64,000 bases of DNA from Nitrospinaceae bacterium. Its GTDB lineage: Bacteria; Nitrospinota; Nitrospinia; Nitrospinales; Nitrospinaceae. How positions within the stretch are numbered: the stretch's first letter is position 1; every line of letters begins with the position of its first letter. Below the pieces are notes generated by a model. That model was not told where the DNA came from. It saw only the letters and a list, made by a program, of their open reading frames with translations, and did not search any database. Below are positions 39,013 through 57,463 of this stretch, one piece after another. The stretch covers positions 1,920,001 to 1,984,000 of the forward strand of contig OZ245011.1 in the NCBI GenBank assembly GCA_965223665.1, written 5' to 3'. The position numbers and the translations under genes are program-made.

Positions 39013-39933
39013 ATGATCATGCTAACCAAAACGACACAAATGAACGATCAGCTGCTCACCATCGGGGAACTGGCAAAAAGAACTGGCATCACCACACACA
39101 CGCTCCGCAAGTGGGAAAAACGATACCAGGCCCCGAAGTCGATCCGCCTTCCTTCCGGACACCGGCGTTACCGTCCTGAAGAGGCGGATCGACTGAAAGC
39201 CGTAGCCAAGGCGTTGGAACTGGGTTTTCGGGCTGGAAGAATTGCGGGCGGTACTTTGGATGAGCTGAAGGAACTGATGGGGTTGGAAAAGTCCATCCAG
39301 GTACCGTCTCAGGCAAAACTGTCTGAGAGTTCACACATTGTTAAAAATTGGTTGCAGTGGGTCAAAGATTTCGATGAAGAACCGCTGGTTAGAGATATGC
39401 ATTGTCAATGGGGACGTCTCGGTCCGTTACGTTTCGTGACCGACCTGGCAGCGCCATGGGTAATGCAGATTGGGGAACATTGGCAACATGGGCATCTTAC
39501 AGTAGCGCATGAACATTTTGCCACCTCACTGCTCAGCGACTTTTTATCAAATCGGTGGCGTGGACTGAACGAACATAAGGAAGGACAACGTACGGCTCTG
39601 CTCACCACGCTGCCGGGAGAGAAACATATTTTAGGACTGCTGATGTGCGCGGTGGTCACGGCGGTGACTCACTGGAAAGTCATCTTCCTGGGACTGGACA
39701 CTCCGGAAGAAGAAATCGTTACCACCATGCGCAACTGTAATGCCGAGGTCTTATGCGTCAGTGTGACTGGTTGGTTTGGCGTTTCCCGAGCCCGACCGAT
39801 CTTGTGGCGCATTCGTAAACAGTTGAGCAAGGGCGTCGATATCTTTGTCGGGGGCAGTGGTGCTCCTGAGGATATCAAGGGCGTGCATAAAGTGGAAGAT
39901 TTTAACCAGTATCATAAATTTTTAACTCAATAG
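39013..39933 (+). CDS. carH: MerR-family cobalamin-binding regulator (CarH/LitR-like photoreceptor)
   Basis: MerR HTH (TLRKWEKRY, GHRRY); W-x9-EH (WQHGHLTVAHEH) and ExHxxG (GEKHILG) B12 motifs; FVGG. Exact start uncertain. Confidence 0.85.
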   Translation: MIMLTKTTQMNDQLLTIGELAKRTGITTHTLRKWEKRYQAPKSIRLPSGHRRYRPEEADRLKAVAKALELGFRAGRIAGGTLDELKELMGLEKSIQVPSQAKLSESSHIVKNWLQWVKDFDEEPLVRDMHCQWGRLGPLRFVTDLAAPWVMQIGEHWQHGHLTVAHEHFATSLLSDFLSNRWRGLNEHKEGQRTALLTTLPGEKHILGLLMCAVVTAVTHWKVIFLGLDTPEEEIVTTMRNCNAEVLCVSVTGWFGVSRARPILWRIRKQLSKGVDIFVGGSGAPEDIKGVHKVEDFNQYHKFLTQ

Positions 39934-40774: not shown

Positions 40775-41728
40775 ATGAAGCAAAAAATCAAAATTGGGGT
40801 CAGTAGCTGTCTGATTGGAGAAAAAGTCAGGTGGAATGGGGATCATAAGCAGAACCATTATGTCCGGGAAGTATTGGGCCATTATTTTGAATACGTCCCG
40901 GTTTGTCCGGAGGTGGAAGTGGGAATGGGAACTCCCCGAGAAACTGTGGCTCTTTATGGACCGCGGGAAAACCCCAAAATGATCAGCCGGAAAAGTCATA
41001 TCGATTGGACTTCACCAATGCGACACTACATTAAAAATCGAATTCCTGAATTAAACAAGGAGGATCTTTGCGGATACATTTTTAAAAGCAAATCTCCCTC
41101 CTGTGGTTTAGCTAGAATTCCCGTCTACTCGGATTTTACCCACCAGAAAGCCAGGCATGGGGCCGGTTTGTTCGCCGATGCCTTTAAAACAAAATATCCC
41201 TGGGTTCCCACGGAAGACGAAGGTCGGTTAAACGATTTCAAAATTCGAGAAAATTTTCTGGTCCGCGTGTTTTGCTTTCACAGATGGCAGCGTTTATTAA
41301 AGGAAGGATTTTCCATAAAGACACTCGTGGACTTTCACACTCGTCACAAATTTTTACTTTTGTCTCATAGTCGAAAATATTATGACGCTCTGGGGAAACT
41401 GGTGGCAAACGCAAAGTCTTTTAAAAAGCGTGAACTCCAGGATCAATACGTCAGTTTATTTATGGAAGCTCTCACGTATAAATCCACTCCCAAAAAAAAT
41501 ACCGATGTGCTGCTTCATATGCTGGGCTTCTTCAAGAAACAACTGCAAAAAAATGAAAAAGAAAATATTTTGAAGGTCATAGAAGATTACCGAAACGAAC
41601 TCATCCCTTTAATTGTTCCCGTTTCCTTAATGCGTCACATGGTAACCATTCACAATATTAAATATTTGCAGGACCAGGTTTATCTAAACCCACATCCGAA
41701 AGAACTTATGTTACGAAATCATGTTTAA
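40775..41728 (+). CDS. DUF523 + DUF1722 (YbgA-like) protein
   Basis: IGVSSCLIG, VCPEVEVGMGTPR, KSKSPSCG, EDEGRL, FHTRHK, YL.DQVYLNPHP.EL.LRNHV. Confidence 0.92.
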   Translation: MKQKIKIGVSSCLIGEKVRWNGDHKQNHYVREVLGHYFEYVPVCPEVEVGMGTPRETVALYGPRENPKMISRKSHIDWTSPMRHYIKNRIPELNKEDLCGYIFKSKSPSCGLARIPVYSDFTHQKARHGAGLFADAFKTKYPWVPTEDEGRLNDFKIRENFLVRVFCFHRWQRLLKEGFSIKTLVDFHTRHKFLLLSHSRKYYDALGKLVANAKSFKKRELQDQYVSLFMEALTYKSTPKKNTDVLLHMLGFFKKQLQKNEKENILKVIEDYRNELIPLIVPVSLMRHMVTIHNIKYLQDQVYLNPHPKELMLRNHV

Positions 41729-41994: not shown

Positions 41995-42186
41995 TTAATC
42001 ACTACAAGAAAAACAAAGTGGCCGCTGATCCGAACAACCCGAACCATAGGGTGTAATGCCACCGAACTCTGAGGGAACGGTAGCCGTGTGCTTATCAGGT
42101 TTTACTGATTTTTCTTGAATGCTCCACTGAAAAAAATTGGAGCGGGTGTGGGGGTTTAAATTTTTGTCATAGTTTCTTTCGATCAT
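41995..42186 (-). CDS. Putative RiPP precursor P1 (63 aa)
   Basis: FQWSIQE leader motif; C-terminal PYGSGCSDQRPLCFSCSD; GAGGA RBS. Confidence 0.8.
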   Translation of the reverse strand: MIERNYDKNLNPHTRSNFFQWSIQEKSVKPDKHTATVPSEFGGITPYGSGCSDQRPLCFSCSD

Positions 42187-42322
42187 AGAGTTTCCTCAAG
42201 AAAAGGGATGGAGAAATAAAATTTTTGAATGTCTTCATAATTTCATTTCCTAGTTTGAGAAAGGTGATGAGCATCACCGTTTCTATGAGAGCCAAAATCA
42301 AATTAACAGAGCCCTCTCTTCA

Positions 42323-42351
42323 AAGTTAAGGGCATGAAAGCATTAGGTCAA
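42323..42351 (-). promoter_or_regulatory. Sigma70-like promoter for precursor P1
   Basis: Minus strand TTGACC-N17-TAACTT. Confidence 0.55.
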
Positions 42352-42603
42352 GAAAAATTTACAAATTTTTTTGCTTTTTGAAGCGGTTTTTCAAAGGCTT
42401 GTGGTAACAACCTTTGACGGGGGGAGATAGTATGGATTGAATCCAAAAGTAAAGATGCAGTTTAAAAAGTAAAAGTCAGGTGGTATTTTCCAATGAAAAA
42501 GGTGGGCGGAAGAAGAGGGAACCACCGTTTACCCGAATGGGTTCTCTTCCTCTTCCGCCCGAGGGGCCTGAAGATTAGAAAGATCTTTATTGCAAAATCT
42601 ATT

Positions 42604-43602
42604 TTACTCTTTAAGGCGAATCTCCAATCGATTGCGACCATTTTTTTTAGCAAGGTACATGGCCTGATCCGCCCTTTCAAAAAAGGATTCCTCGGAATCT
42701 TGTTCATGAAGAGACGTCAGACCCAAACTGATCGTTACTGAAATGGTTTCATTTTTATAAATCAGATAATCTTTTTCTATACTCGCTCGAATTTTTTCTC
42801 CAATGCGGGTTCCAACTTTCAGAGGACACCCCTTGAGCAAAACAACAAATTCTTCTCCACCATAACGAAAAATAAAATCTGATTGTCTAATCCCATTTCG
42901 AATCGAAGAAGCCACAAGGCTTAGAACTTTATCACCCAGTTTATGTCCATGCGTATCATTGATTTTCTTAAAATGATCAATGTCACATACCATGAGAATA
43001 TTTGAATTTTTCAAACTTTTAAATTCCCGGATGGTTTGCGCTACCTTTAAATTATAGGCGGCTCTATTCAAAGTTTTTGTGAGCGGGTCTATCATCCTTT
43101 CACTTTTAGTTTCTTCAAGTTTTTGGACAAGGTTATTGATAATATCCTGTCTGGTTTCCAATTCTTTTTTTAAATCCTGCGTGGTGGTTTTTATTTCTTG
43201 AAGATCATTAATCAGCTCATCCTTTACCCTGAGAATGTCTTTCAGGTCTTTGGATGTATGGATTTTGCTAAGGTATCCTTCAAAGTTCTGATCGAAATTC
43301 CCCAGGTTTCCCACTGCATCTTTAAGAGCCGTTACCATACTCAAGACAATAACTTTAGCTTCTTCTTTTTCGGATTCTTCAAATTCATTGAGGAGAGTGA
43401 TGCTCTTAAAAAATTCCTCGATACTTTTTCCAAGATCGGTAACAGGCTTAACGTGCACCGCCTTTCTGACCACATCTTCTAACTGGTTTAATTTTAAATT
43501 CAATGGATCGTCACTGGTGAGTTGCCCTCTCGTTCCTTTAATAAAAACTAAAAGAATGTTGCACACTCTATCGGTGAATTCTGCCGGAATAATTCTAGTC
43601 AA
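42604..43602 (-). CDS. Diguanylate cyclase (GGDEF)
   Basis: DPLT..LNR, DIDHFK.INDTHGH..GD, RYGGEEF, RADQAMY.AK..GRNR; helical N-terminus. Confidence 0.92.
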   Translation of the reverse strand: MTRIIPAEFTDRVCNILLVFIKGTRGQLTSDDPLNLKLNQLEDVVRKAVHVKPVTDLGKSIEEFFKSITLLNEFEESEKEEAKVIVLSMVTALKDAVGNLGNFDQNFEGYLSKIHTSKDLKDILRVKDELINDLQEIKTTTQDLKKELETRQDIINNLVQKLEETKSERMIDPLTKTLNRAAYNLKVAQTIREFKSLKNSNILMVCDIDHFKKINDTHGHKLGDKVLSLVASSIRNGIRQSDFIFRYGGEEFVVLLKGCPLKVGTRIGEKIRASIEKDYLIYKNETISVTISLGLTSLHEQDSEESFFERADQAMYLAKKNGRNRLEIRLKE

Positions 43603-43674
43603 GTTTTTAAGCCTAAAAATTAAAGTTGATTAAGGACCAAAGTAATTATTAATCGACTACTAATTACTTTTAAT

Positions 43675-44547
43675 TTACAAATTATCTTTGGTTTGCGAAG
43701 GAGGGTATCCAAAGTATCGTTTATATTCCCGACTAAATTGAGAGGCACTGGAAAATCCCACTTCGTCCGCTACGACATTGGCATTGATTCCTCTATTGGA
43801 CAGCAAGTCTCTTGCTTTATTGAGACGCACTTTCTTTATATATTGAATTGGAGATTCAGAGGTTATTTCGCGAAAAGATTTATGAAATGCGGAGACACTC
43901 ATAGTCGCTATCTTGGCTAATTCTTTTATTTCCAGTGGCGAGGAAATATTGTCCTGGATAAATCTTAGAACCCTGGCTATTCTTTCAAAACTTGTATTGT
44001 GCTCCACACAATCAAACAGGGCCGATCCATAGGGGCCATTTAAAGCACAATAAATTACCTCACGTAAATGGCAATGGCCTAGTACCCGTGTGTCGTTTGG
44101 ATTTAACAGACATTTTAATAACCTCTCCACAGATTCCGCCATATCTTTATCCAGCGGTACAGAACCGATTCCTCTAAGAGGATTAAATTCCATATAACTT
44201 TTTATGTTTGGCTGCTTTTCTATTTTTGTGACAATATCATGGAGTGTAGTTAAGTTAATATTTATAGAAATTCCCAACACCGGGTACTTGGCAGATCCAT
44301 AGGTTTCACATTCAAAAGGTAACGGCTGGGAAAGGACCAAATAATAGCCTTCATCAAAAGGATAGGTCTCCTTATCCAAAAATCCCATGTTCATTCCCTG
44401 CCCAATCACAATAATACAAGGACGAAGCAGGTTGGGAGCACGTTGTAAACGTTTTGAAACACGAAAAATATTTATGCCGGGAAGTAAGGGATGAATGAAC
44501 TCTTTCCCTCTAGAAAGTTTTTCTAACAAAGCGGCTAGTCTTGGCAT
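43675..44547 (-). CDS. AraC-family transcriptional regulator
   Basis: MSVSAFHKSF...SPIQYIK..RL; VGFSSASQFSREYKRYFG.PP. Confidence 0.92.
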   Translation of the reverse strand: MPRLAALLEKLSRGKEFIHPLLPGINIFRVSKRLQRAPNLLRPCIIVIGQGMNMGFLDKETYPFDEGYYLVLSQPLPFECETYGSAKYPVLGISININLTTLHDIVTKIEKQPNIKSYMEFNPLRGIGSVPLDKDMAESVERLLKCLLNPNDTRVLGHCHLREVIYCALNGPYGSALFDCVEHNTSFERIARVLRFIQDNISSPLEIKELAKIATMSVSAFHKSFREITSESPIQYIKKVRLNKARDLLSNRGINANVVADEVGFSSASQFSREYKRYFGYPPSQTKDNL

Positions 44548-45580
44548 GTAGCACTCAAAAAATATTAGTCGGACAAGAGTTATAGACTATTTCAATTTTC
44601 AATTCCAGCCAAACTTACAAAATATGAAGGATTAGGCAAACAATTTAGAGATTTGTGCAATTTATTTTTATCAATTTTATATCCTCATTTATTTTAAAGT
44701 TCTTCTTAATATAATTTTAAAAACTACTGTGTAGGTAGGTTCGGGTAATCACAGTAGCAATTTATTGGATTCGGACCAAAATCCAAATCTTAAGGTCACC
44801 AAATAGTAACCCACACATTTTTTATCTATCAAAATATTTTTCAATTATTTAAGAAAAGAAATCGTTTTAAAGTTTGTTCAATTACCATTCCCCATAGCTA
44901 AATTTTTTTTTATTCCAAAATTGGCACAACCTTAAATTAGGAAAGCATAGAGATGCACCCAAAAAGAAGTGAAAGCTTAAGCCAATATGGAGTCAAAGCA
45001 CTTATGCAAAATATATATAGTGTTTCTTCTAATAAATATTCACTCACAAACATAAATAATTTCGAAAACTATATTCAGTTTTAATAAAGGTCTCTATTAA
45101 CTTCACCAGGCTCTAACATCAATGTCATTAAAGTAAATTTGAAGCGAGGTAGGAATTTTCCTACATCCCAAAACCCTTAAGGAAAGAACTATTTTTGTAG
45201 TTTTTAAAATTTAAATTCTGGGGCGTACCGTGAACCACTTAGACAAAAATTTTTTAACGAAGAATTTAAAATGAGTTTTCCAGCCCAATGATCAGGAAAT
45301 CATTAGGACCCGATATCTTAAATCATCAAGGCCAAAGAGATTTTTACTTTAAATTCTTTCAGTGGCTGCAAATTGTTTTTTTACAGGAAAAGCTTTTGTC
45401 TTAAGAATAAAATTTACATGGTGGGATTTATTACTTAATGTCTAAAAAAAAAAGCAGAAGAAGAGTGGACCCCAAATACCTGTGGGTTTTCTCCTTCTAC
45501 TTATGATTGATGAATCTTTGAATGATCGGTTAAAAAGCCAAAATGTTTTTTAACTACAAACGGAACCGAAATTTCCAAAC

Positions 45581-45781
45581 TTAACAATTACACGAAAAAG
45601 ACGGCTGATTGAAGCACGACAATGCCTGGGGTCCGGCAGAACCACAACCGTATGCCAGAGGTCCGGTAATACAACCTGTTGGTGAGGACCTATGGGTTTT
45701 AACAGTTTCCGAAGATTCCTCTTGAACGCTCCATTCAAAACCTTTTCGGTTAATAATTTTACTTTTTCTATTTTTAAGCAT
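45581..45781 (-). CDS. Putative RiPP precursor P2 (66 aa)
   Basis: FEWSVQE leader motif; SPTGC, PLAYGCGS, SFSCNC; GGAGG RBS. Confidence 0.85.
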   Translation of the reverse strand: MLKNRKSKIINRKGFEWSVQEESSETVKTHRSSPTGCITGPLAYGCGSAGPQALSCFNQPSFSCNC

Positions 45782-45916
45782 GATGCCTCCACTTGAATTG
45801 GACTAATTGTTCCAAAACTTAACCCCGTCAAAGGAAAAGGGAAGTGATCGTTAAATAATACACAAAAGCGGTTTTTGATTTTTTATAATCTCAATCATAC
45901 TACCCTCGAAAAAAGA

Positions 45917-45952
45917 AAAGGGGAAAAGTATAAAGCATTTATACTTTCCCCC
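45917..45952 (-). terminator. Probable terminator hairpin between P3 and P2
   Basis: GGGGAAAAGTATAAA-GCA-TTTATACTTTCCCC with an adjacent A run (U tract on the minus strand). Confidence 0.6.
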
Positions 45953-45983
45953 TTAATTTTTTGTATCCAAAGATCTTTAAATA

Positions 45984-46169
45984 TTAATTACATTCACAAC
46001 CATATGGAAGTGGTGTAATTGCATTTCGTGGAACACGGTTACATTCACAACCTAATGGAACCATTGGAGGGGTGCAACCTGTTGGCGAAGGAATATTAGA
46101 TTTTCTATTATTCTGCGCCTGTTCTTGAATGCTCCAATCAAAGCCTTTGGAATTTTTTCTGTTTTCCAT
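45984..46169 (-). CDS. Putative RiPP precursor P3 (61 aa)
   Basis: FDWSIQE leader motif; SPTGC; duplicated P[LY]GCECN; GGGAG RBS. Confidence 0.85.
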   Translation of the reverse strand: MENRKNSKGFDWSIQEQAQNNRKSNIPSPTGCTPPMVPLGCECNRVPRNAITPLPYGCECN

Positions 46170-46214
46170 AATGTTTTCGCTCCCGGAAAAAAAATACTAA
46201 TACATTATATATAG

Positions 46215-46412
46215 TTAACAGCTACCGCACCCATAAGGAAGCGGCCGTTGAATCGTGTACGATTGAGGTTGCGGCGAAAAAAAACAATCCCAACTCTGTA
46301 CCATTTGAGTATTGGGTTTATCCCCATTCACAGTTTCTTCTTGAATACTCCAGTTAAAGCTTTTGGGGTCTTCCATTGTTCTTAAAGCTTTATTATTTTT
46401 GGTTTGAATCAT
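46215..46412 (-). CDS. Putative RiPP precursor P4 (65 aa)
   Basis: Likely start MIQTK at 46412, 10 nt after the YcaO stop, with GGGGGAG RBS; FNWSIQE; QRPLPYGCGSC. Confidence 0.85.
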   Translation of the reverse strand: MIQTKNNKALRTMEDPKSFNWSIQEETVNGDKPNTQMVQSWDCFFSPQPQSYTIQRPLPYGCGSC

Positions 46413-46422
46413 TTCTCCCCCC

Positions 46423-48660
46423 TCAAGGAAAAGGATGTGGAAACAATATGCCCTTCCTGGGTTTGGTTCCACGGTTTTTAACCTCCGGTAATATTGGTTC
46501 CAGACCATAACCAAATGATATTGGAACCATCCCCTCAATTAAAGCTCGAACAACTTTAATAGTTGACCCGCCACTTAAAGTTAGACAGATCGCCGGAGTA
46601 ATGTCGAGATAATAGCTATTTCTTGCCCGTTCTGTCAACCAATTTTTAAGACTATTTAATTTCTCACAATGGCTCTTCACCCCTGAAAAATCAATAACAT
46701 CGGATCCCCGTAATAAATGGTCTGCCCTTTTGTAGTAACGCCTTTGACTATAAAGGTTTACATGATCCTCTGGAGTCGACGCATTTTCCGGCGAAATTGG
46801 TATCGGATTTCCGATCTGATCGGTCAGGGTCACCATCGACTCCAATTCACTGATTCCATGCTCTAAGGCCGAAAAAGGATCATACCCCGCCGCGGCCGTC
46901 ACTCGCGTCATTTTCTTCGGGGTATTTTGCGAAAACAGTAAAAAACTGGTTATAGGTTCCTGTGACATGACCAAAACCTGTGCCTCCCAGCCAATTTTGT
47001 TGAGTCCACGGATCCTGTTTTGGAGTTCACTCGGAATGGAAGAAAGAATTACTTTAGGAAGGGAAATTTTTCCCAACCAGGTTCGCATGAACTGATCGCG
47101 CTCAATCAATTCCACTATGGCACGGTCCAGCGCTCCTTCAAAGGTGGGGTAAGCCGCCACTCCGGATGTGGAAGTGAACGTATAAGGCAGTTCACTTTTC
47201 TTTCTTCGCTTTTCCATATAATAACTTTTGGGTTTTGAAGAAAAATACACCTGGTCCGCCAAAACCCAATGCGGTTCATCGGTGACCAAATGTTTAACCC
47301 GAACCCATTCATATTTCCTCCGCTTACTAAAAGGAGACAGAGGAAATTCCGGCCGTTCATATTGTTCCTTTGAATATTGAACAAACTTTTCGGGATCCAC
47401 AAAACGATCCAACTCTCCGGCAGTGGCCTTTTTAATATCCCTGGGCATCTGACAGGACAGACGTTCCACCGATTCGGCAATGGCTTTATCATAAGCCAAT
47501 AATGGATCCGCGTCTCGCCCCCAACACCATCCAGAAGATAACTTATCTAAAAATAAATTTGTGCGTGCAAAATAAAATGGTGGTTGATAAGAATTGCTGT
47601 CAAAGTCTACCCAGGAAAATGAAAGATCATAATCTTTATTTATTTTAGACTTTTCCTTTGGAGACAACTGATTCCCGACAACCATTACCAAATACGGGTC
47701 ATGATTCGGAAGCTCCGTGATGGGTTTAATACGTTCATCCATGTAACCGCCCAAAAGATAAACACCGACTCCCATTTCCAGAGCGCACAGTTGAATATTT
47801 TGAGCGGCGTGCCCCGTTTCAATCAAACAATACGAAACTGATCGATTTCCATACTTGGCTCCGGAGTGCGCAAAATTTCCACTGATAACGATAGCACCAT
47901 GGCCGGAAGCCACTCCCGTTGGATCGAGCAAAGCTCTAAATAATTTGTCAGGAGGGCTGGAAAGTTTCTTAAAACCAATCTTACGAGATTTGCCAAAACT
48001 GACATGATACACTCCCGCGTCCAGCTTGTTGGTCTTCCTCCATTGAATCCAGGTAAACTCCAAAGGATAAACACCTCCACCGGAAGGAACTGTTCGCCCG
48101 GCTCTTTGATCATACTTCCCCAGTTTTTTGGTGGCGTCCAACACTCCGTAACCGGCATACAGCAACGCCGTTATTTGATCCATTGACATGGCCGTGCGGT
48201 CAAATTCGCGATCGGTTCCCCTGTTCTGCAGCGATTCTATAAATTTGGTTTTAGGAGGACGAAAGGTTTTTGCTTTGGGATCCAGTTTTTGGACACGGTC
48301 ACTGGCCGCTTTCGCCAATTCAAAGGGCAACTCCGGAGGAACGTCCGAAGGGTAAGGTTGCGGGTTATGCACCCACGACCATTGATGAGAAATCCAATAC
48401 TTGGTAGGAACCAGAATTCCCCGGGAAACCAGATCATTCAAAAAACTAACGATCGTCTCTCGGTCAAAACTCTTGGAAAGACCGTCCACAATCGTTTTAA
48501 AATCACGTTTGCCATCGACGGTTTCAAAAAGGTCCTTCAATAAACTTTTGGGAGCGCGAATAGTAAAACTTTTACTACTTTTCATTACGGTTAATCTGTC
48601 ACCGGCTAATTTGACAGAAGAGGCAAAATTCAGGGGAGTATTATTTTCGATTTTTGACAT
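46423..48660 (-). CDS. Fused RRE-like / SagB-type FMN dehydrogenase / YcaO cyclodehydratase
   Basis: N-terminal wHTH (DGKR...FLNDLVSRGIL). Dehydrogenase motifs RTVPSGGGVYPLE, KYGNR, ETGHAAQN. YcaO ATP motifs AESVER, STSGVAA, ELIERD. C-terminal PHPFP. Confidence 0.88.
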   Translation of the reverse strand: MSKIENNTPLNFASSVKLAGDRLTVMKSSKSFTIRAPKSLLKDLFETVDGKRDFKTIVDGLSKSFDRETIVSFLNDLVSRGILVPTKYWISHQWSWVHNPQPYPSDVPPELPFELAKAASDRVQKLDPKAKTFRPPKTKFIESLQNRGTDREFDRTAMSMDQITALLYAGYGVLDATKKLGKYDQRAGRTVPSGGGVYPLEFTWIQWRKTNKLDAGVYHVSFGKSRKIGFKKLSSPPDKLFRALLDPTGVASGHGAIVISGNFAHSGAKYGNRSVSYCLIETGHAAQNIQLCALEMGVGVYLLGGYMDERIKPITELPNHDPYLVMVVGNQLSPKEKSKINKDYDLSFSWVDFDSNSYQPPFYFARTNLFLDKLSSGWCWGRDADPLLAYDKAIAESVERLSCQMPRDIKKATAGELDRFVDPEKFVQYSKEQYERPEFPLSPFSKRRKYEWVRVKHLVTDEPHWVLADQVYFSSKPKSYYMEKRRKKSELPYTFTSTSGVAAYPTFEGALDRAIVELIERDQFMRTWLGKISLPKVILSSIPSELQNRIRGLNKIGWEAQVLVMSQEPITSFLLFSQNTPKKMTRVTAAAGYDPFSALEHGISELESMVTLTDQIGNPIPISPENASTPEDHVNLYSQRRYYKRADHLLRGSDVIDFSGVKSHCEKLNSLKNWLTERARNSYYLDITPAICLTLSGGSTIKVVRALIEGMVPISFGYGLEPILPEVKNRGTKPRKGILFPHPFP

Positions 48661-49109: not shown

Positions 49110-49928
49110 ATGGAAAACTCAAAAGAAGAAACCAACAATCCAAAAAAGAGTACTCCCATAAATCTATTGTGGACTGGAGGATGGGATTCTACATTTCGAC
49201 TGCTGGAGCTTTTAATTATAGAAAAAAAAAGCGTCCAACCTTATTACATTGTGGATCATGAAAGAGCATCCACACTCTATGAAATGAAAGCCATGCAAAC
49301 CATCAAGGAAATTCTCTTCATTAAATTTCCGGAAACTCAAGAGCTGTTATTCCCCACCATCACCCAACGCCGGAATCAGATCAAACCCAATAAAGAAATT
49401 ACTCAAAAATGGAAACAATTTTATAAGGAAATAAAATTAGGCAGCCAATACGATTGGATTCCTAGGTTTGCCGAGGAACAGGGTCTTTATGATCTGGAAC
49501 TGGGCCATGAAAAACCCTACAAGCCACGTCCCCTGGATGAAATCATTGATCCCAATATTATTGGTGAAGGGCACGAATGCCGAGTGACGAGCAACCCCAC
49601 CCGACCCATGGTCACTCTGTTTAAATATTTTCGTTTCCCAATTTATTTTGTCACAAAAGCAAAAATGGAGAGGATCTCTCGCGAAAACGATTTCTTTGAT
49701 ATCATGCAAAACGTCTGGTTTTGCCATCGCCCCAGAAGCAACGGCACCCCCTGCGAATTTTGCCGACCCTGCAGAGTGGCAAAGAAATCCGGGTTTTCCC
49801 ATGGCCTGCCCCCCTCGAACTGGTTGCGCGACCAATACTTAAAACTCTGTTACAAAGTTTCCTCTGCTTGGGACCAGTGCCTGCACATCCTTAAACGCAT
49901 TTCCCGTAAACTGAAAAACTTTTCCTGA
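49110..49928 (+). CDS. QueC-like / PP-loop adenine-nucleotide alpha-hydrolase protein
   Basis: LLWTGGWDSTF PP-loop variant; C-terminal WFCHRP...PCEFCRPC Zn motif. Confidence 0.75.
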   Translation: MENSKEETNNPKKSTPINLLWTGGWDSTFRLLELLIIEKKSVQPYYIVDHERASTLYEMKAMQTIKEILFIKFPETQELLFPTITQRRNQIKPNKEITQKWKQFYKEIKLGSQYDWIPRFAEEQGLYDLELGHEKPYKPRPLDEIIDPNIIGEGHECRVTSNPTRPMVTLFKYFRFPIYFVTKAKMERISRENDFFDIMQNVWFCHRPRSNGTPCEFCRPCRVAKKSGFSHGLPPSNWLRDQYLKLCYKVSSAWDQCLHILKRISRKLKNFS

Positions 49929-50017
49929 GTAATTCCAAAATTCAGAAATTGATTTAGAATAGGCCTAAAATGTAAAACCAAAAATTTTTGCCTTGATCTA
50001 TGGTAGGAGGAAAACCC

Positions 50018-51286
50018 ATGCCTAATAAAATAAAATTACTATTAATGGTATTTTTTGTCTCTTTGTTTTTTAACGGTTGCTCCAGTTTTGGAAAAGGGGT
50101 CGTCGAGGGACTCCTTGAGAATTCAGAAAAAGAAGATAAAAGAGCTTGTCAAATTTGGAGTAAAGGATTTGAAGGTATTGGAGCAAGCATTGAAAAAACT
50201 CAAGGTAAGACTAAGGTCTTAATGGTCCATGGAGTTGGAAGTCACATTCCCGGATACTCTACGATTCTATTAGAAAAATTATCTCAAAAACTAGATCTTC
50301 CTTTAATTGATATTCCTTTTAAGGAATTAACCATATCTGAAATCAATGATCCCTCAAAAAATTTGGGTAATTTGCGACTAAATAGATTAATCAGTAGAGA
50401 CAAAGAGAGGGAACTTTTATTTTATGAGCTAACTTGGTCTAGAATTAGTCAATCTGAAAAAGAAGTTTTAAATTATGATAATTCCGGTCTGTATTCCTTT
50501 CGACGTGCTAATGTTAATAACGCTTTGAAAAAGTTTTCGAATGACTCAATTTCGGACCCAATGATTTATTTAGGGGAAAAACAGGAGGATATTCAAAAAT
50601 CTGTAATACAAAGTGTTTGTTGGATGATTTCTTATGGGTGGAATACATTTCCTTCTGGTGAACATAAACTCTGCCAATTCAACAGCCCCGGGATATTAGA
50701 AAACGCAAAAAAAGATGATTATATTTTTATTTCACATAGTTTAGGCAGCAGAATTACCATTGACGCTCTTCAAAAAGTCGTAGGGTTGGTAAATAACAAA
50801 AATGTTCAAAAGAAGTTCCCCGAAGTAGAAAAACTTCACCACGAAATTCAAAATAGAGTTGTTACTATTTTTATGTTTTCTAATCAATTACCTTTATTGC
50901 AATTGGGCCGCCCATTACCAGAGATTTTGAATGAGAATGATAAATATTGTTTACCAAATGGAAGTCACTTTTCCGATCGATTTGCCAATCAAACTCATAT
51001 TATTGCATTTAGCGATCCCAATGATTTATTAAGTTACTCTATTCCCGCGGGATTCGAAAATAATTATCTTGATTCACGAATGTGTACTAAAGTAAGCAAT
51101 GTTAGTATCAATGTAGCTCATGTGGTAGATGTTTTCGGTGTCAGTGAAGTTGCCAATCCCATAGAAGCGCATGTGGGTTATGACAGTGATGATCGAGTGG
51201 TGGAATTAGTTGCTCATGGATTAAATAATCAAAATATTACTCCCATTATTAAAGAAAGATGTAAATGGATGGAGTTAGTGAAATGA
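50018..51286 (+). CDS. Lipoprotein with alpha/beta-hydrolase-like motifs
   Basis: Start MPNK after AGGAGG; FNGC lipobox; VHG, SHSLG, DPND, AH. Confidence 0.7.
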   Translation: MPNKIKLLLMVFFVSLFFNGCSSFGKGVVEGLLENSEKEDKRACQIWSKGFEGIGASIEKTQGKTKVLMVHGVGSHIPGYSTILLEKLSQKLDLPLIDIPFKELTISEINDPSKNLGNLRLNRLISRDKERELLFYELTWSRISQSEKEVLNYDNSGLYSFRRANVNNALKKFSNDSISDPMIYLGEKQEDIQKSVIQSVCWMISYGWNTFPSGEHKLCQFNSPGILENAKKDDYIFISHSLGSRITIDALQKVVGLVNNKNVQKKFPEVEKLHHEIQNRVVTIFMFSNQLPLLQLGRPLPEILNENDKYCLPNGSHFSDRFANQTHIIAFSDPNDLLSYSIPAGFENNYLDSRMCTKVSNVSINVAHVVDVFGVSEVANPIEAHVGYDSDDRVVELVAHGLNNQNITPIIKERCKWMELVK

Positions 51287-51296
51287 ATAAATTTCA

Positions 51297-52601
51297 ATGG
51301 AGGATCAAAGAATGAAATTCGCCAAGTTAATCATCTGGAAACCAGAAAGAAATATTTTATTTAATTTTTTTATTTTCGCCTTGAGTCTTACCATTCCCTC
51401 CCTATCATTTTCTAATAATTCATTTACAACACCAGCCTCCTCATCTACAAAAATATCCGAATATGAAACTCCTCCCATACTAAAAGCAAGCCAATATTTA
51501 CCTTCGAAATTACTTAAGAGTAAATACCATAAGGTAGAAGAAGATATTGACACCTTTGGGTTTACCAATTCATATCGAATTAATTCAAAGTTTTTTATTT
51601 CGGAAGTTAGAGGAGATGATTTGCTTCGTGAGAGGATTCAAGAAGTACATGCCCTGGCAACACTATTAAAAATGAAAAAGACAAACAAGTTTATTGATGC
51701 TGCCACACGGTCCGCTCTCTCTCCTGTATCTTTTGCAAAAAATCTTATTCTTCGACCGGTAGATACTATCTCTGGAATTCCTCAAGGTATTTGGAGGTTT
51801 TTTTCCCGAGTGGGAGAAATGACTGGAGGAAAGCGAGGACAAGCAGAGGATGGCATTTCCAAAGAATTAATTGGGTTCTCGGCGGTAAAAAGAAAAATTG
51901 CTCATCAGTTAGGTGTTGATGTTTATTCCACAAATCGCACTCTTCAGAAAGAATTAAATAGTGTTTCCTGGGCTTCTTTTTCGGGTGGTTTTGTAGTGAG
52001 CATGGCCATAACTCCACTTAGAGTTTTAAAGCTTACAAAAACAGCAAATAAAATGACAAAAATTTTGAGAGACAAAGCTCCAGAAGATTTGAGAAAATTG
52101 AACCGAGCCAAACTCAAAAAATTTATATCTAATGATAAACTTGTCGAAAAGTTTTTAGAACACCCCTATTTTTCTCCACGACATGAAACTTTTCTTGTAG
52201 CCGCATTAGAAAATATGCAGGGAACTCAAAATTTGGATAAATTCGTCTATCGAGCTTATAAAGCTCAATCTTTTGAGGATGCTTTTATTTTCCAACGTAT
52301 CGCAGAGATATTAGATAAATATCATAATGAAGTTTCACCAATTCAGAAAATAGCAATTGAACCTTCAAGAAATTTTCCGGTAGCAATTACAAAAGATAAC
52401 AAATTAGTCATCGCGTTATTAGTAGACTATGCTGTTTGGTCCAAAATTGCTGCCAAGTGGGCCCAGGACTTAACCCGAGCAAATAATAGAGTGAACCCAA
52501 ATCGAAAAATAGAACTATTGATTACTGGCACATTGTCTCCAAGAGCCAGAAACGAATTAAAATCCTTAGGGATATCCGTCAAGGAAAAAGTTTTAGATTA
52601 A
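51297..52601 (+). CDS. Hypothetical exported protein
   Basis: 434-aa ORF with an N-terminal hydrophobic segment. Confidence 0.7.
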   Translation: MEDQRMKFAKLIIWKPERNILFNFFIFALSLTIPSLSFSNNSFTTPASSSTKISEYETPPILKASQYLPSKLLKSKYHKVEEDIDTFGFTNSYRINSKFFISEVRGDDLLRERIQEVHALATLLKMKKTNKFIDAATRSALSPVSFAKNLILRPVDTISGIPQGIWRFFSRVGEMTGGKRGQAEDGISKELIGFSAVKRKIAHQLGVDVYSTNRTLQKELNSVSWASFSGGFVVSMAITPLRVLKLTKTANKMTKILRDKAPEDLRKLNRAKLKKFISNDKLVEKFLEHPYFSPRHETFLVAALENMQGTQNLDKFVYRAYKAQSFEDAFIFQRIAEILDKYHNEVSPIQKIAIEPSRNFPVAITKDNKLVIALLVDYAVWSKIAAKWAQDLTRANNRVNPNRKIELLITGTLSPRARNELKSLGISVKEKVLD

Positions 52602-55191: not shown

Positions 55192-55613
55192 AACAGCCGG
55201 AAAAGAAAAGGTTTGGAAGATAGATTTCCCTAAATGGCGGTTTTTGATAGGAAGTTATTACTAGATGGGCATTAATTGTAAATACCCAAAAACAAGGGTT
55301 TTGCAGGGATTAATTTCCCTCAGGGCCCAAAATTGTCAGTAGGTAGACCCCATATTGTTACACTGACTCTCCCATACCCTTAATTTGCGTAAATCTATTA
55401 GAAGTGGGCGGAACTATGAATCCCCCGATATGCACCAATATTAAATGAGATTATTCAAACAAACTCAATTCCCCTTTTGCTGTTGTATAATGCTTCGCTT
55501 GGAAAAGAATTGGGTGAAACGAGTAAAGAACAAAAATTTTTTTAAATCCTAAGAAAATCAGGGCAACAGGTTTAATCATTTAAAAAGTAAAATATGACTT
55601 TGAGGTGCGGAAG

Positions 55614-56672
55614 ATGAAAAAGATATTTTATTTAGTGACTCTGGGTTGTTGTTTAGCGTTTCTTCCTGTTATTGCCGCGGCAAAAACAATTCACTTAAAT
55701 GATTGCTCCGGAACTAAACTTTCTTTTAAAACCGCCAAGGCCGCGTGCAAATCCGGCAAACATCCCGGCCAGACTATAGTTAAATGCAATAAAAAAGGAG
55801 ATATAAAGAACACCAGACGTTGCAGTACCGATGGACAAAAAAAAGGGATTTACGAAGACAGTTGCACCGGAACCCCAACAGGATTTAAAGATTTAGTCAA
55901 GGCCTGCAAATCGGGAAACCATTTCGGTCAGTTGCTCGTTAAATGCAAAAACGGAAAGGAAAAGAAACGGATGCAGTGCGAATCCGCCGGAATGACTTTA
56001 AAGAAAACGGTCATTTTTAAGAATCGATGTGGCGGTGATCCCATTTCCGGAAAGAATTTAAAAAAGGCGTGCAAAAATAATACAGGGGAAACCCTGGTGA
56101 AGTGCGTGCGCAAAAATAATATTTGGAAACCCAAAAAATCCATGCTTTGTCATGGAAACCGGGACCGGTTTAAATTTAAATTTTGTTCACCCAATGAGCG
56201 GCAAACGCTCATTGATGATTATGAATGGGCCGAAAACCGAGTGGATATTGTTCTCAATGATTTAAATAACTGGTTTGCTTCTAATCCCTCAGTAGACAAA
56301 AAACTGCGGAAAAAAATGGAAAAAGTGCAAAAGAAATTAAGAAAAATTCAAACGGCCATGGACCGCCCCCGGACCTATGTTTGCCGGGCCAACAAAAATC
56401 GATGTGGCCGCGCCAACGCCCATACCATGTGGACCGGACACAAGGTTAAAATTTGCGATCGTTATTTTTTCAAATCCGGAGCCGCAAATCAACCGGAGCG
56501 TGGGTCCATTCTCGTACACGAAATTTCTCATCATAAAGTAGAAACCAATGATAAAGGCACCGAGCATGGAGGATGTGCCAGTCCCAGCCTGGCCTCGGCG
56601 AGTAGTAACTTTCATAAGCAAGCCGAGTATTATGAACACCTTATAGAATGCGGGCTTTATATTCCCAATTAA
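55614..56672 (+). CDS. Secreted M35-like metallo-endopeptidase with three Cys/Lys-rich N-terminal repeats
   Basis: Signal peptide; repeats C.G...K.ACK...G...VKC; IC..YF, ILVHEISHH...TND. Confidence 0.72.
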   Translation: MKKIFYLVTLGCCLAFLPVIAAAKTIHLNDCSGTKLSFKTAKAACKSGKHPGQTIVKCNKKGDIKNTRRCSTDGQKKGIYEDSCTGTPTGFKDLVKACKSGNHFGQLLVKCKNGKEKKRMQCESAGMTLKKTVIFKNRCGGDPISGKNLKKACKNNTGETLVKCVRKNNIWKPKKSMLCHGNRDRFKFKFCSPNERQTLIDDYEWAENRVDIVLNDLNNWFASNPSVDKKLRKKMEKVQKKLRKIQTAMDRPRTYVCRANKNRCGRANAHTMWTGHKVKICDRYFFKSGAANQPERGSILVHEISHHKVETNDKGTEHGGCASPSLASASSNFHKQAEYYEHLIECGLYIPN

Positions 56673-56689
56673 TTCAGGGATAATTTATT

Positions 56690-57463
56690 ATGTTCCAAAT
56701 CCTATCGATTAGTTTCATATATATAACGATACTTTGTGGCACCGCCACAGCCAGTCCAACTGATAATTCCACTGCTCCTCCTGAAGCAATGGTTTTAATT
56801 CCGGCGGGAGAGTTCCAAATGGGAAGTCCCCGGGACATAGGAGAGGATGATGAACACCCGCAGCACTCCGTTTATGTAAATTCGTTTTTTATAGATATCA
56901 CGGAGGTGACTCAGGCGAACTATGAAAGGGTGATGGGAAAAAATCCTTCTCATTTTAAAGGAACGAATTTACCCGTAGAAAAAGTGACCTGGAGTGAAGC
57001 CCAGGCGTACTGCCAGGCCCTGGGCAAGCGATTGCCGACCGAAGCAGAATGGGAAAAAGCGGCAAGAGGAAAAAATAATTCGGTTTTTAGCTGGGGCAAT
57101 GAAGTGACGTCACAGGGCGGCAACTACTGCGATAAACAATGTGAAAAAAAGTGGAAGTCGGACCGGTTTGACGACGGTCACAGCAATACAGCGCCAGTAA
57201 AAAGTTATGCTCCGAATGATTATGGATTGTTTGACATGGGGGGCAATGTGTATGAGTGGGTGAAGGATTGGTACCACAAGGACACTTATAAAAAAAGTCC
57301 CTACGAAAATCCAAAAGGCCCCGAGAGCGGAAAATTTAAAGTGATGCGAGGCGGATCCTGGGATGTCAGCCCCGCCGTGTTACGCAACGCGTATCGTTCC
57401 GGCCTGGCGCCGGATTTTCGCAGCTACTCCGTCGGGTTTCGCTGTGCCAAATCCACCCAATAA
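56690..57463 (+). CDS. Formylglycine-generating-enzyme (SUMF1/EgtB) domain protein
   Basis: IPAGEFQMGS, EVT, RLPTEAEWEKAARG, NDYGLFDMGGNVYEW, RGGSW, VGFRC. Confidence 0.92.
   Translation: MFQILSISFIYITILCGTATASPTDNSTAPPEAMVLIPAGEFQMGSPRDIGEDDEHPQHSVYVNSFFIDITEVTQANYERVMGKNPSHFKGTNLPVEKVTWSEAQAYCQALGKRLPTEAEWEKAARGKNNSVFSWGNEVTSQGGNYCDKQCEKKWKSDRFDDGHSNTAPVKSYAPNDYGLFDMGGNVYEWVKDWYHKDTYKKSPYENPKGPESGKFKVMRGGSWDVSPAVLRNAYRSGLAPDFRSYSVGFRCAKSTQ

Follow-up and report, generated by a model that had tools for sequence, protein, structure and literature searches.

Can a single protein chain bind a peptide, cyclise its side chains and oxidise the resulting rings without the partner protein that usually assists in such chemistry? 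The question is raised by a locus of a Nitrospinaceae bacterium (GenBank assembly GCA_965223665.1), located in a stretch of 64,000 nucleotides of contig OZ245011.1 (positions 1,920,001 to 1,984,000 of the forward strand; hereinafter the window, with coordinates counted from its first letter). There, a 745-aa fusion protein, which we call the maturase, is encoded together with four short open reading frames (ORFs), candidate precursors of RiPPs (peptides that are made by the ribosome and modified after translation). Azole-forming RiPP enzymes are normally complexes of two or three proteins in which an E1-like/ThiF-like partner binds the leader and activates the YcaO enzyme. An earlier examination of this DNA, the sequence-only reading, had proposed a new and minimal azole-RiPP system consisting of one fused enzyme and four precursors. 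The analysis reported here suggests, with a probability of about 0.7, that the locus is a compact cluster of the linear azol(in)e-containing peptide/thiazole- and oxazole-modified microcin (LAP/TOMM) type, in which a short peptide tag would dock on a RiPP recognition element (RRE), the YcaO domain would catalyse cyclodehydration, and a domain that depends on flavin mononucleotide (FMN) would oxidise the products to azoles.

The fused maturase

The enzyme and the candidate precursors, numbered from the maturase outwards, are all encoded on the minus strand:

46423..48660, minus strand: fused maturase, 745 aa, in the order RRE, helical linker, predicted FMN azoline dehydrogenase, predicted YcaO cyclodehydratase (ORF, Pfam, NCBIfam)
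48406..48639, minus strand: maturase residues ~8-85, winged helix read as the RRE (AlphaFold2 (AF2) domain model and Foldseek)
47668..48228, minus strand: maturase residues ~145-331, SagB/McbC-type FMN dehydrogenase with the K269-Y270 dyad (Pfam, NCBIfam, alignment with McbC)
46426..47520, minus strand: maturase residues ~381-745, YcaO cyclodehydratase ending in PHPFP (PF02624)
46215..46412, minus strand: precursor 1, 65 aa, leader FNWSIQE, core ending in PLPYGCGSC, start 10 nt past the maturase stop codon
45984..46169, minus strand: precursor 2, 61 aa, leader FDWSIQE, core with two P[LY]GCECN units
45581..45781, minus strand: precursor 3, 66 aa, leader FEWSVQE, own ribosome-binding site (RBS) and upstream region
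41995..42186, minus strand: precursor 4, 63 aa, leader FQWSIQE, distal, own RBS

Pfam recognises two catalytic domains in the maturase, Nitroreductase (PF00881, residues 145-329) and YcaO (PF02624, residues 381-711, 119.6 bits), and NCBIfam assigns it to the SagB family of dehydrogenases (TIGR03605, 82.5 bits, exceeding the cut-off of 78.4); the chain ends in ...FPHPFP. The full-length AF2 model, built on 90 family members, has a mean predicted local distance difference test score (pLDDT) of 93.2 and a predicted template modelling score (pTM) of 0.92, and is accounted for by the RRE, the linker, the dehydrogenase and the YcaO domain, with no room for an E1-like domain. A scan of the 745-aa chain and of neighbouring ORFs with Pfam and NCBIfam detected neither an E1-like (C) nor an Ocin-ThiF-like (F) partner domain. 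Foldseek matches the YcaO part to the PDB structures of LynD, TruD, MusD, the archaeal and E. coli YcaO proteins and McbD, and the middle domain to those of BmdC, ThcOx and McbC, whereas the PDB relatives detectable at the sequence level are a tandem nitroreductase (3eo7), TruD, BmdC, MusD and McbC.

The residues on which catalysis would depend are conserved across the family. K269-Y270 of the maturase aligns with K201-Y202 of McbC, the catalytic dyad of that azoline dehydrogenase (Ghilarov et al. 2019, PMC6395948; here and below, papers are cited for particular sections). Y270 is invariant in all 90 family members, and position 269 is occupied by K in 78 of these and by R in 12. In the YcaO part, E396, E517, E520, R521 and H742 are invariant (90/90) and E399 is nearly so (E in 89/90); we take the glutamates E396, E517 and E520 to be the acidic residues of the YcaO nucleotide-binding site. 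The C-terminus is near-invariant across the same 90 proteins as F-P-H-P-F, and a proline-rich C-terminus is typical of azoline-forming YcaOs (PMC8442711, PMC6395948).

The first 150 residues yield no above-threshold Pfam match, the sub-threshold ones being to PaaA-like_N, PqqD and winged-helix families. When modelled alone by AF2, from an alignment of 20 sequences cut from the loci, the N-terminal domain has three helices preceded by four short strands and followed by one more, with a pLDDT of 83 overall and above 90 over residues 10-90. RRE-bearing RiPP enzymes dominate its top PDB matches in Foldseek, which include MibB, TbtB, MadB, NisB, ThcOx, McbB, TruD, LynD, TigE and PqqD and, additionally, TbiB1 with its leader bound and the recognition element of PbtF; the comparison with ThcOx gives a root-mean-square deviation of 2.3-2.8 Å over 80-86 columns at ~20% identity, the value for the structure 5lq4 being 2.5-2.8 Å. 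Judging from these models, we read the domain as an RRE. As the sequence-only reading had proposed, the maturase is a fused enzyme; it joins a docking domain with the RRE fold, an FMN dehydrogenase and a YcaO domain in one chain, and its catalytic residues are intact. Of the components that characterise LAP/TOMM clusters, the YcaO enzyme, the dehydrogenase, the RRE (by fold) and the adjacent precursors are present, and the partner protein is missing.

The precursor peptides

The short minus-strand ORFs of the earlier proposal were recovered with lengths of 65, 61, 66 and 63 aa (that of precursor 1 being counted from the RBS-linked ATG and differing by one residue from the 66 aa read earlier), each with a purine-rich Shine-Dalgarno sequence 2-10 nt ahead of its ATG (GGGGGGAG, GGGAG, GGAGG and GAGGA). 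Their position downstream of the YcaO gene, as originally described, holds in full for three of them: precursors 1-3 follow the maturase directly, but precursor 4 lies a further 3.4 kb away, past an AraC-type and a GGDEF gene. All four share the leader (P)K-x-F-x-W-S-[IV]-Q-E, with the variants FQWSIQE, FEWSVQE, FDWSIQE and FNWSIQE exactly as first read, and the recurring [PA][YL]G[CS] motif of the tails is likewise there, in the form of PYGC, PLGC/PYGC, AYGC and PYGS. The 16 Cys residues (3, 5, 5 and 3) are, without exception, in the C-terminal halves.

Within the genome (4.35 Mb), the leader is confined to this locus. A DNA pattern for W-S-[IV]-Q-E has four matches, each of them at the maturase locus, and the backwards control has none; a six-frame scan of the whole genome for F.W[STN][IV][QE][EQ] returns four occurrences, again all at this locus. 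With a hidden Markov model (HMM) of the family leader, the four precursors score 22-26 bits, compared to 16.4 bits for the best of the 87,443 other short frames in the genome. The sharing of the leader motif exceeds chance.

Within the host's family, the fused gene is present in 2 of 21 genomes, namely, the window genome and that of one sister species (G001). The latter encodes a maturase with 86% identity as well as orthologues of precursors 1, 2 and 4, with no counterpart of precursor 3 at its locus, so that precursor 3 is specific to the window genome; an orthologue of precursor 1 is found also on a third contig (P0168). Between the window and the sister genome, the precursor leaders and the C-terminal blocks (PLPYGCGSC, GCECNRVPR...PLPYGCECN and DQRP) are conserved, and the middle parts of the cores vary. 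Non-synonymous divergence (pN) is 0.15-0.44 in the peptides vs 0.07 in the maturase, and synonymous divergence is 0.28-0.64. Such a pattern is what genuine genes for RiPP precursors, with their variable cores, should show.

Short repeats occur inside some of the cores: precursor 2 (45984-46169) has P[LY]GCECN in two copies and precursor 4 of the sister genome (L097:8943-9146) has SC[AV]DQRPF in two copies, which suggests that cores may grow by cassette duplication.

The window genome also contains a second, canonical TOMM locus of four genes, ~0.6 Mb before the window (L098, G000:C1:1354000-1366000). Its genes are those for a 77-aa precursor, which ends in ...SSCVCICCTASVIQLATK and is unrelated to the precursors of the window, an E1-like C protein (343 aa), a YcaO protein (457 aa, ending in DPHPFP) and a SagB dehydrogenase (289 aa). 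Matches of this kind, with YcaO and SagB as separate proteins, occur in 9 more genomes from the host family, 11 of the 21 in all.

Distant relatives of the maturase and their tagged peptides

The fused architecture is already abundant in databases, though unnamed. A word-indexed search produced 22 relatives of the maturase, 20 of them with both Pfam domains, one being 86% identical and the others 34% identical or less; an exhaustive search with the window maturase recovered 252 representatives of 50%-identity clusters at E<=1e-30, and ~127 of the best 150 of these align nearly full length. A protein atlas holds several unnamed Nitroreductase/YcaO clusters of 700-750 aa, with 71-147 members each. 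The full-length homologues come from Betaproteobacteria (Achromobacter, Cupriavidus, Variovorax, Polaromonas), Reyranella, Bdellovibrionales and many Patescibacteria, and the distant fused homologues in Proteobacteria and Patescibacteria show 27-35% identity to the maturase of the window.

Of 80 related loci that were kept, 30 were examined, and these are the basis of the counts that follow. At 23 loci the enzyme is encoded by one ORF of 717-851 aa, and at 4 the dehydrogenase (321-331 aa) and the YcaO protein (504-618 aa) have genes of their own, side by side; of the remainder, two are broken into pieces and one is cut by the contig end. Matches in Nostoc/Aliinostoc were rejected as fused enzymes: the one locus inspected (L062) has separate C, D and B genes and a Gly/Cys-rich precursor. 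The closest relatives outside the genus (P0023, P0025 and P0027; 37-39% identity, 951-968 aa) carry an additional N-terminal GNAT acetyltransferase domain ahead of the RRE, dehydrogenase and YcaO, and such four-domain maturases may, judging from their sequence, also acetylate the product.

The commonest neighbour of the related enzymes is a predicted zinc protease of the DUF2268 family with an invariant H-E-x-x-H motif (15/30 loci, mostly in Patescibacteria). An ATP-grasp-like gene of ~320 aa adjoins the fused maturase at 8 of the 30 loci, all proteobacterial, and HlyD/OEP export genes are added at some. In Cupriavidus (L017), the ATP-grasp-like gene is flanked by two fused maturase genes. Among the neighbouring ORFs scanned, the window locus has no DUF2268, ATP-grasp or HlyD/OEP genes. 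The description of the system as minimal fits the host genus; the distant relatives usually add either the DUF2268 protease or the ATP-grasp-like protein.

Peptides with a related tag accompany many of these distant enzymes. The exact FxWS[IV]QE motif was not found outside the host genus in the 80 related loci. At 14 of the 30 examined, however, there is a nearby ORF of 41-72 aa whose product contains [FL]-x-W-x-[VI]; looser variants of the tag occur at 6 more. The ORFs at the 14 loci follow a strong RBS, begin with a Lys/Arg-rich stretch and close with a short tail rich in Gly, Ser and Cys (for example, MKNPKKFSWKVTSKDKPLLGVIVCQEQCSSGGGGNGKCGTSK), and the tag consensus at the distant loci is P-K-x-F-x-W-x-[VI]. 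In an alignment of 21 peptides, W is invariant and F nearly so, the consensus being P-K-x-F-x-W-S-V. An HMM made from the 7 leaders of the host genus alone places four distant-locus peptides at the top of the ranking (13.5, 13.3, 11.0 and 10.9 bits), with a best reversed-control score of 8.2 bits, and candidate precursors make up 8 of the 9 best true matches. When the 21-peptide profile was searched against 5.8 billion sequences, 19 proteins matched at E<=1e-3 and 25 at E<=10, bearing the name 'hypothetical protein' wherever they were named at all; F-x-W-x-[VI] is present in 19 of the 21 matches fetched, and in the other two the motif ends in A or L.

The tag and the fused enzyme co-occur across distant taxa. 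The search that was suggested with the original proposal, for such peptides beside homologous enzymes, has turned up short ORFs next to them whose leader, F-x-W-x-[VI], is related, the exact motif being confined to the genus. The sequence-only reading had not recognised the leader from known precursor families, and the curated families do not cover it either: NCBIfam matches 0 of the 21 peptides at E<=1, and Pfam gives two chance-level matches (E 0.15 and 0.24). The computational checks suggested with the proposal all turned out favourably to it.

Proposed mechanism and alternative explanations

We infer the mode of binding, the azole chemistry and the self-sufficiency of the enzyme to be as follows. 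The alternating hydrophobic residues of the leader, F, W and I/V, would dock as a beta-strand on the RRE, and the tethered C-terminal core would reach the YcaO site, at which ATP-dependent cyclodehydration would turn Cys residues, and perhaps Ser/Thr, into azolines. The core would then move to the dehydrogenase site, at which the Lys-Tyr dyad and FMN would oxidise the azolines to azoles. The fused RRE and dehydrogenase would stand in for the separate E1-like/ThiF-like partner, which is absent from the locus (a C protein is encoded only at the separate canonical locus), and the four hypervariable cores, with 3-5 Cys each, could give rise to four different thiazole-containing peptides made by one enzyme. 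Removal of the leader and export would rely on genes outside the locus.

Several observations weigh against this scheme. Azole formation is deduced from homology, and the SagD-family cyclodehydratase model (NCBIfam TIGR03604) gives the maturase 138.2 bits, under the curated cut-off of 219.25; on this score, the YcaO domain appears to be a relative of that subfamily outside its curated membership. The cores are Pro-rich and only moderately rich in Cys (3-5), and in this they depart from microcin B17 and from the distant relatives, whose cores are of the Gly/Ser/Cys type. Among the neighbouring ORFs scanned, the maturase locus has no protease, exporter or immunity gene, and no DUF2268 homologue was found in the window genome, while control genomes gave matches. 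A recognisable tagged peptide is lacking at 10 of the 30 related loci, and a loose regular expression for the tag does not discriminate (21/30 loci vs 12/30 reversed controls); it was replaced by the leader HMM test described above. The Foldseek E-values for the RRE-fold matches are weak, 6e-3 at best, although the list of matches is coherent despite this. Finally, the predicted complex of the recognition domain with precursor 1 scores 0.33 vs 0.00 for the best of three controls, with runs agreeing in at least 59% of contacts and a partner pLDDT of at least 44. Among solved complexes, 58 of 80 attain the mark adopted for docking, and among mismatched pairs 2 of 110 do so; at scores of 0.60 or less, it is attained by only 7 of those 80 complexes and by both mismatches. 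The prediction, rated as 'weak support' on this calibration, is compatible with docking of the tag on the RRE and adds little to the case.

The product might, then, not be an azole. A RiPP system could stop at azolines, form an amidine or macroamidine, act as a MusD-like ATP-dependent peptidase or perform another dehydrogenation, such as the PflD-like formation of a dehydro-amino acid. YcaO enzymes have several known outcomes, and one of the proteins that the maturase matches best, in structure as well as in sequence, is MusD (PDB 7u58, 'YcaO-mediated ATP-dependent peptidase activity'). The partner-less YcaOs of bottromycin biosynthesis produce a macroamidine (PMC7136475), the nitroreductase domain of a RiPP enzyme forms dehydrophenylalanine (PMC12636437), and streptamidine biosynthesis needs a dehydrogenase although its product carries no oxidation (PMC8442711); the sub-cut-off score with the SagD-family model points in the same direction. 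However, the dyad conserved in the maturase family, Lys-Tyr, is specific to azoline dehydrogenases, the near-invariant proline-rich C-terminus is of the azoline type (a feature named in PMC8442711 and PMC6395948), the physical fusion of YcaO and dehydrogenase argues for coupled reactions, and no TfuA partner is found among the Pfam matches of ORFs within ~10 kb of the maturase. We consider a non-azole product unlikely.

An azole synthetase that borrows its activator is a different proposition, under which the fused enzyme would depend for an E1-like C protein on the canonical TOMM locus of the same chromosome. That classical set of precursor, C, D and B genes, with its 343-aa E1-like protein, is ~0.6 Mb away, and partners of this sort strongly stimulate canonical azoline-forming YcaOs (PMC4603692). 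Against such dependence speaks the wide spread of fused homologues, many of them on small contigs of Patescibacteria without a C protein among the conserved neighbours; furthermore, the fused enzyme has what the models indicate to be an RRE of its own, and the canonical enzymes are accompanied by an unrelated precursor, of 77 aa. We regard such borrowing as improbable. Still less credible is the possibility that the small ORFs are unrelated small proteins or regulatory peptides and that the enzyme modifies another protein. Some YcaOs do act on proteins, as in the thioamidation of McrA, for which the maturase shows a weak match to the NCBIfam model (TIGR03266), and two unrelated genes separate one of the four ORFs from the enzyme. 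Against this stand the co-occurrence of the tag and the enzyme across phyla at 27-35% enzyme identity, the start of the first peptide gene immediately past the maturase stop codon (10 nt), the peptide-docking domain predicted within the enzyme itself, the absence of the motif from the rest of the genome and the joint inheritance of peptides and enzyme in the sister genome. The compact LAP/TOMM cluster remains our preferred reading, and its layout and neighbourhood are considered next.

Organisation of the locus and neighbouring genes

Further features around the maturase and the precursors are:

46609..46638, minus strand: sigma-70-like match (TTGACA, 18 nt, TATTAT; 11/12, the best of the region), inside the 3' end of the maturase gene
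45918..45954, minus strand: terminator-like hairpin with a 17-bp stem and a T run, right after precursor 2, kept in the sister genome
41867-41900, minus strand: terminator-like hairpin after precursor 4
43675-44547, minus strand: AraC-family regulator (Pfam)
42604-43602, minus strand: GGDEF diguanylate cyclase (Pfam)
49110-49928, plus strand: ORF of 272 aa, divergent from the maturase; motifs TGGWDS (PP-loop-like) and, C-terminally, CxxCxxC

Judging by the hairpin that follows precursor 2, the maturase and precursors 1 and 2 look like a single transcription unit, and precursors 3 and 4 have separate upstream regions. The sigma-70-like match sits ~200 nt upstream of precursor 1 and is a possible extra promoter for the precursors, on the strength of its agreement with the consensus; because promoter-like sites are no more numerous in the region than in shuffled sequences (19 vs 16.9 expected), it is best treated as a lead.

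Comparison with the sister genome helps to understand how this layout might have come about. The only elements around the cluster that are syntenic are the maturase, the peptides and the QueC-like neighbour discussed below. In the sister genome, the orthologue of precursor 4 is directly downstream of precursor 2, and the GGDEF/AraC block is placed elsewhere, which makes the AraC and GGDEF proteins unlikely regulators of the cluster; the block is probably outside the azole-peptide system. It would appear, from the alignment of the two loci, that the arrangement in the window arose by relocation of the GGDEF/AraC block between precursor genes and that the window lineage gained precursor 3 along with a closed AT-rich stretch (44670-45908). 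Behind the moved block there is ~900 bp of AT-rich DNA (34% GC) closed in every frame. Degenerate extra copies of a precursor were sought in the AT-rich gap 44548-45580 and none was found, all six frames being closed.

The 272-aa ORF has no sequence match in Pfam, NCBIfam or PDB, and a protein atlas groups it with clusters of the '7-cyano-7-deazaguanine synthase (QueC) family' (score 0.98). This QueC-like ORF adjoins the maturase in the sister genome too and was not seen beside the distant homologues. Its equation with the DUF2268 protease of the relatives was rejected (hhalign probability 0.4%). Of other RiPP-associated functions, no PatA/PatG-family protease is present among the Pfam matches of the neighbouring ORFs.

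Just past precursor 4 lie genes for a MerR-family regulator with B12-binding domains, in a light-sensor-like architecture (39013-39933, plus strand), and for a fusion of a 2-thiouracil desulfurase with DUF1722 (40775-41728, plus strand), both of which are syntenic in the sister genome; the latter instead has, beside precursor 4, a secreted-looking ORF of 369 aa. On the other side, the ORFs 50000-51286 and 51297-52601, without a Pfam match, are an insertion specific to the window genome relative to the sister locus (L097). At 7-9 kb from the maturase, there are genes for an Aspzincin_M35-type metalloprotease (55605-56672, plus strand) and an FGE-sulfatase-family protein (56690-57463, plus strand), for which no link to the azole-peptide cluster was found.

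Comparison with known systems

Among the closest known systems are those of microcin B17 (McbBCD of E. coli) and of SagBCD, with which the window shares a YcaO with a C-terminal proline motif and an FMN dehydrogenase with the Lys-Tyr pair. In McbBCD, the leader is held by a winged-helix RRE while the core moves back and forth from one of two active sites to the other (PMC6395948), an arrangement that sequence and models would lead one to expect here as well. The window system differs in lacking an E1-like McbB/SagC protein, in carrying the RRE on the dehydrogenase and in being one chain rather than a B4C2D2 complex; its leader is unrelated, its cores are Pro-rich with few Cys instead of containing Gly/Ser/Cys runs, and genes for export, immunity and proteolysis are missing from the locus.

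Among the cyanobactin enzymes that were compared (LynD/TruD/PatD/MusD and ThcOx), LynD, TruD and MusD are the best structural matches of the YcaO part, and ThcOx sets a precedent in that its McbC-like dehydrogenase is directly joined to RRE domains (PMC6395948). Cyanobactin heterocyclases, however, consist of an RRE, an E1-like domain and YcaO, with the oxidase either separate or fused to PatG, whereas the maturase has the order RRE, oxidase, YcaO, a single RRE instead of two, and no E1-like domain, and a cassette-type precursor is absent. Bottromycin YcaO and the streptamidine proteins AmiD/AmiE are similar in that YcaO acts without an E1-like/ThiF-like partner (PMC8442711, PMC7136475) and, in the case of streptamidine, in that YcaO works together with a dehydrogenase and with an RRE that is a protein of its own (PMC8442711). 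These systems make amidines or a single thiazoline, employ follower peptides or other leaders and consist of separate proteins, in contrast to the window, where the RRE and a canonical Lys-Tyr dehydrogenase are covalently fused to YcaO.

Two published sets of loci probably overlap with the relatives of the fused family, as far as the cited sections allow one to judge. Sharrar et al. 2020 (mBio, PMC7298704) predicted 110 LAP clusters with YcaO, nitroreductase, peptidase and an adjacent small precursor in genomes of the Candidate Phyla Radiation, and many of the related loci found here belong to Patescibacteria and include the DUF2268 zinc peptidase. Those clusters, identified with antiSMASH, are described in these sections as having separate YcaO and nitroreductase genes, with an example precursor of 84 aa, and the sections do not report the fusion, the RRE or the leader motif. 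Makarova et al. 2022 (PMC8939145) noted that loci of the ATP-grasp 'branch 6' include SagB-like and YcaO enzymes, a likeness to the 8 of 30 related loci, all proteobacterial, with an ATP-grasp-like gene beside the fused enzyme; the window locus differs in having no ATP-grasp gene. Clusters like the present one were left out of the survey of Travin et al. 2020 (PMC7136475), and that of Russell et al. 2021 was limited to unfused actinobacterial YcaOs (PMC8442711). Our literature search found no paper on an RRE/SagB/YcaO fusion, on the tag or on the combination of DUF2268 and YcaO; its scope excludes the 2017 Chem Rev review of YcaO (PMC5406272) and the supplementary tables of PMC4603692, PMC7298704 and PMC8939145, which possibly list such clusters.

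As to novelty, the part of the original proposal that stands is that this is a compact variant with peptides that belong to no curated family; the part that does not is the implication of a new class. The system is a divergent, four-precursor branch of a large unnamed LAP family within a RiPP class already known, and antiSMASH-type rules would already label the cluster as LAP. It is a good lead for genome mining rather than a new kind of system.

Implications

In the fused family, leader binding, cyclodehydration and oxidation are predicted to take place in a single chain that has no partner and responds to a very short tag. A broader generalisation, to which we give roughly even odds, is that the fused proteins are self-sufficient single-chain azole synthetases that dispense with an E1-like/ThiF-like activator, are steered by a tag of ~8 residues, P-K-x-F-x-W-x-[VI], and form a large undescribed LAP family with four hypervariable precursors in the lineage of the window. 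If true, no leader-directed module that installs azoles would be known to be more compact, and peptide engineering would gain a ready tool, in which one gene would suffice to place thiazoles in designed peptides. It would, moreover, bear on substrate recognition by partner-less azoline-forming YcaOs, which has been flagged as poorly understood (Cox et al. 2015, PMC4603692), and the four divergent cores under one enzyme amount to a natural test of substrate tolerance. Because the family is common in uncultured Patescibacteria and Proteobacteria, its products may matter in microbial competition.

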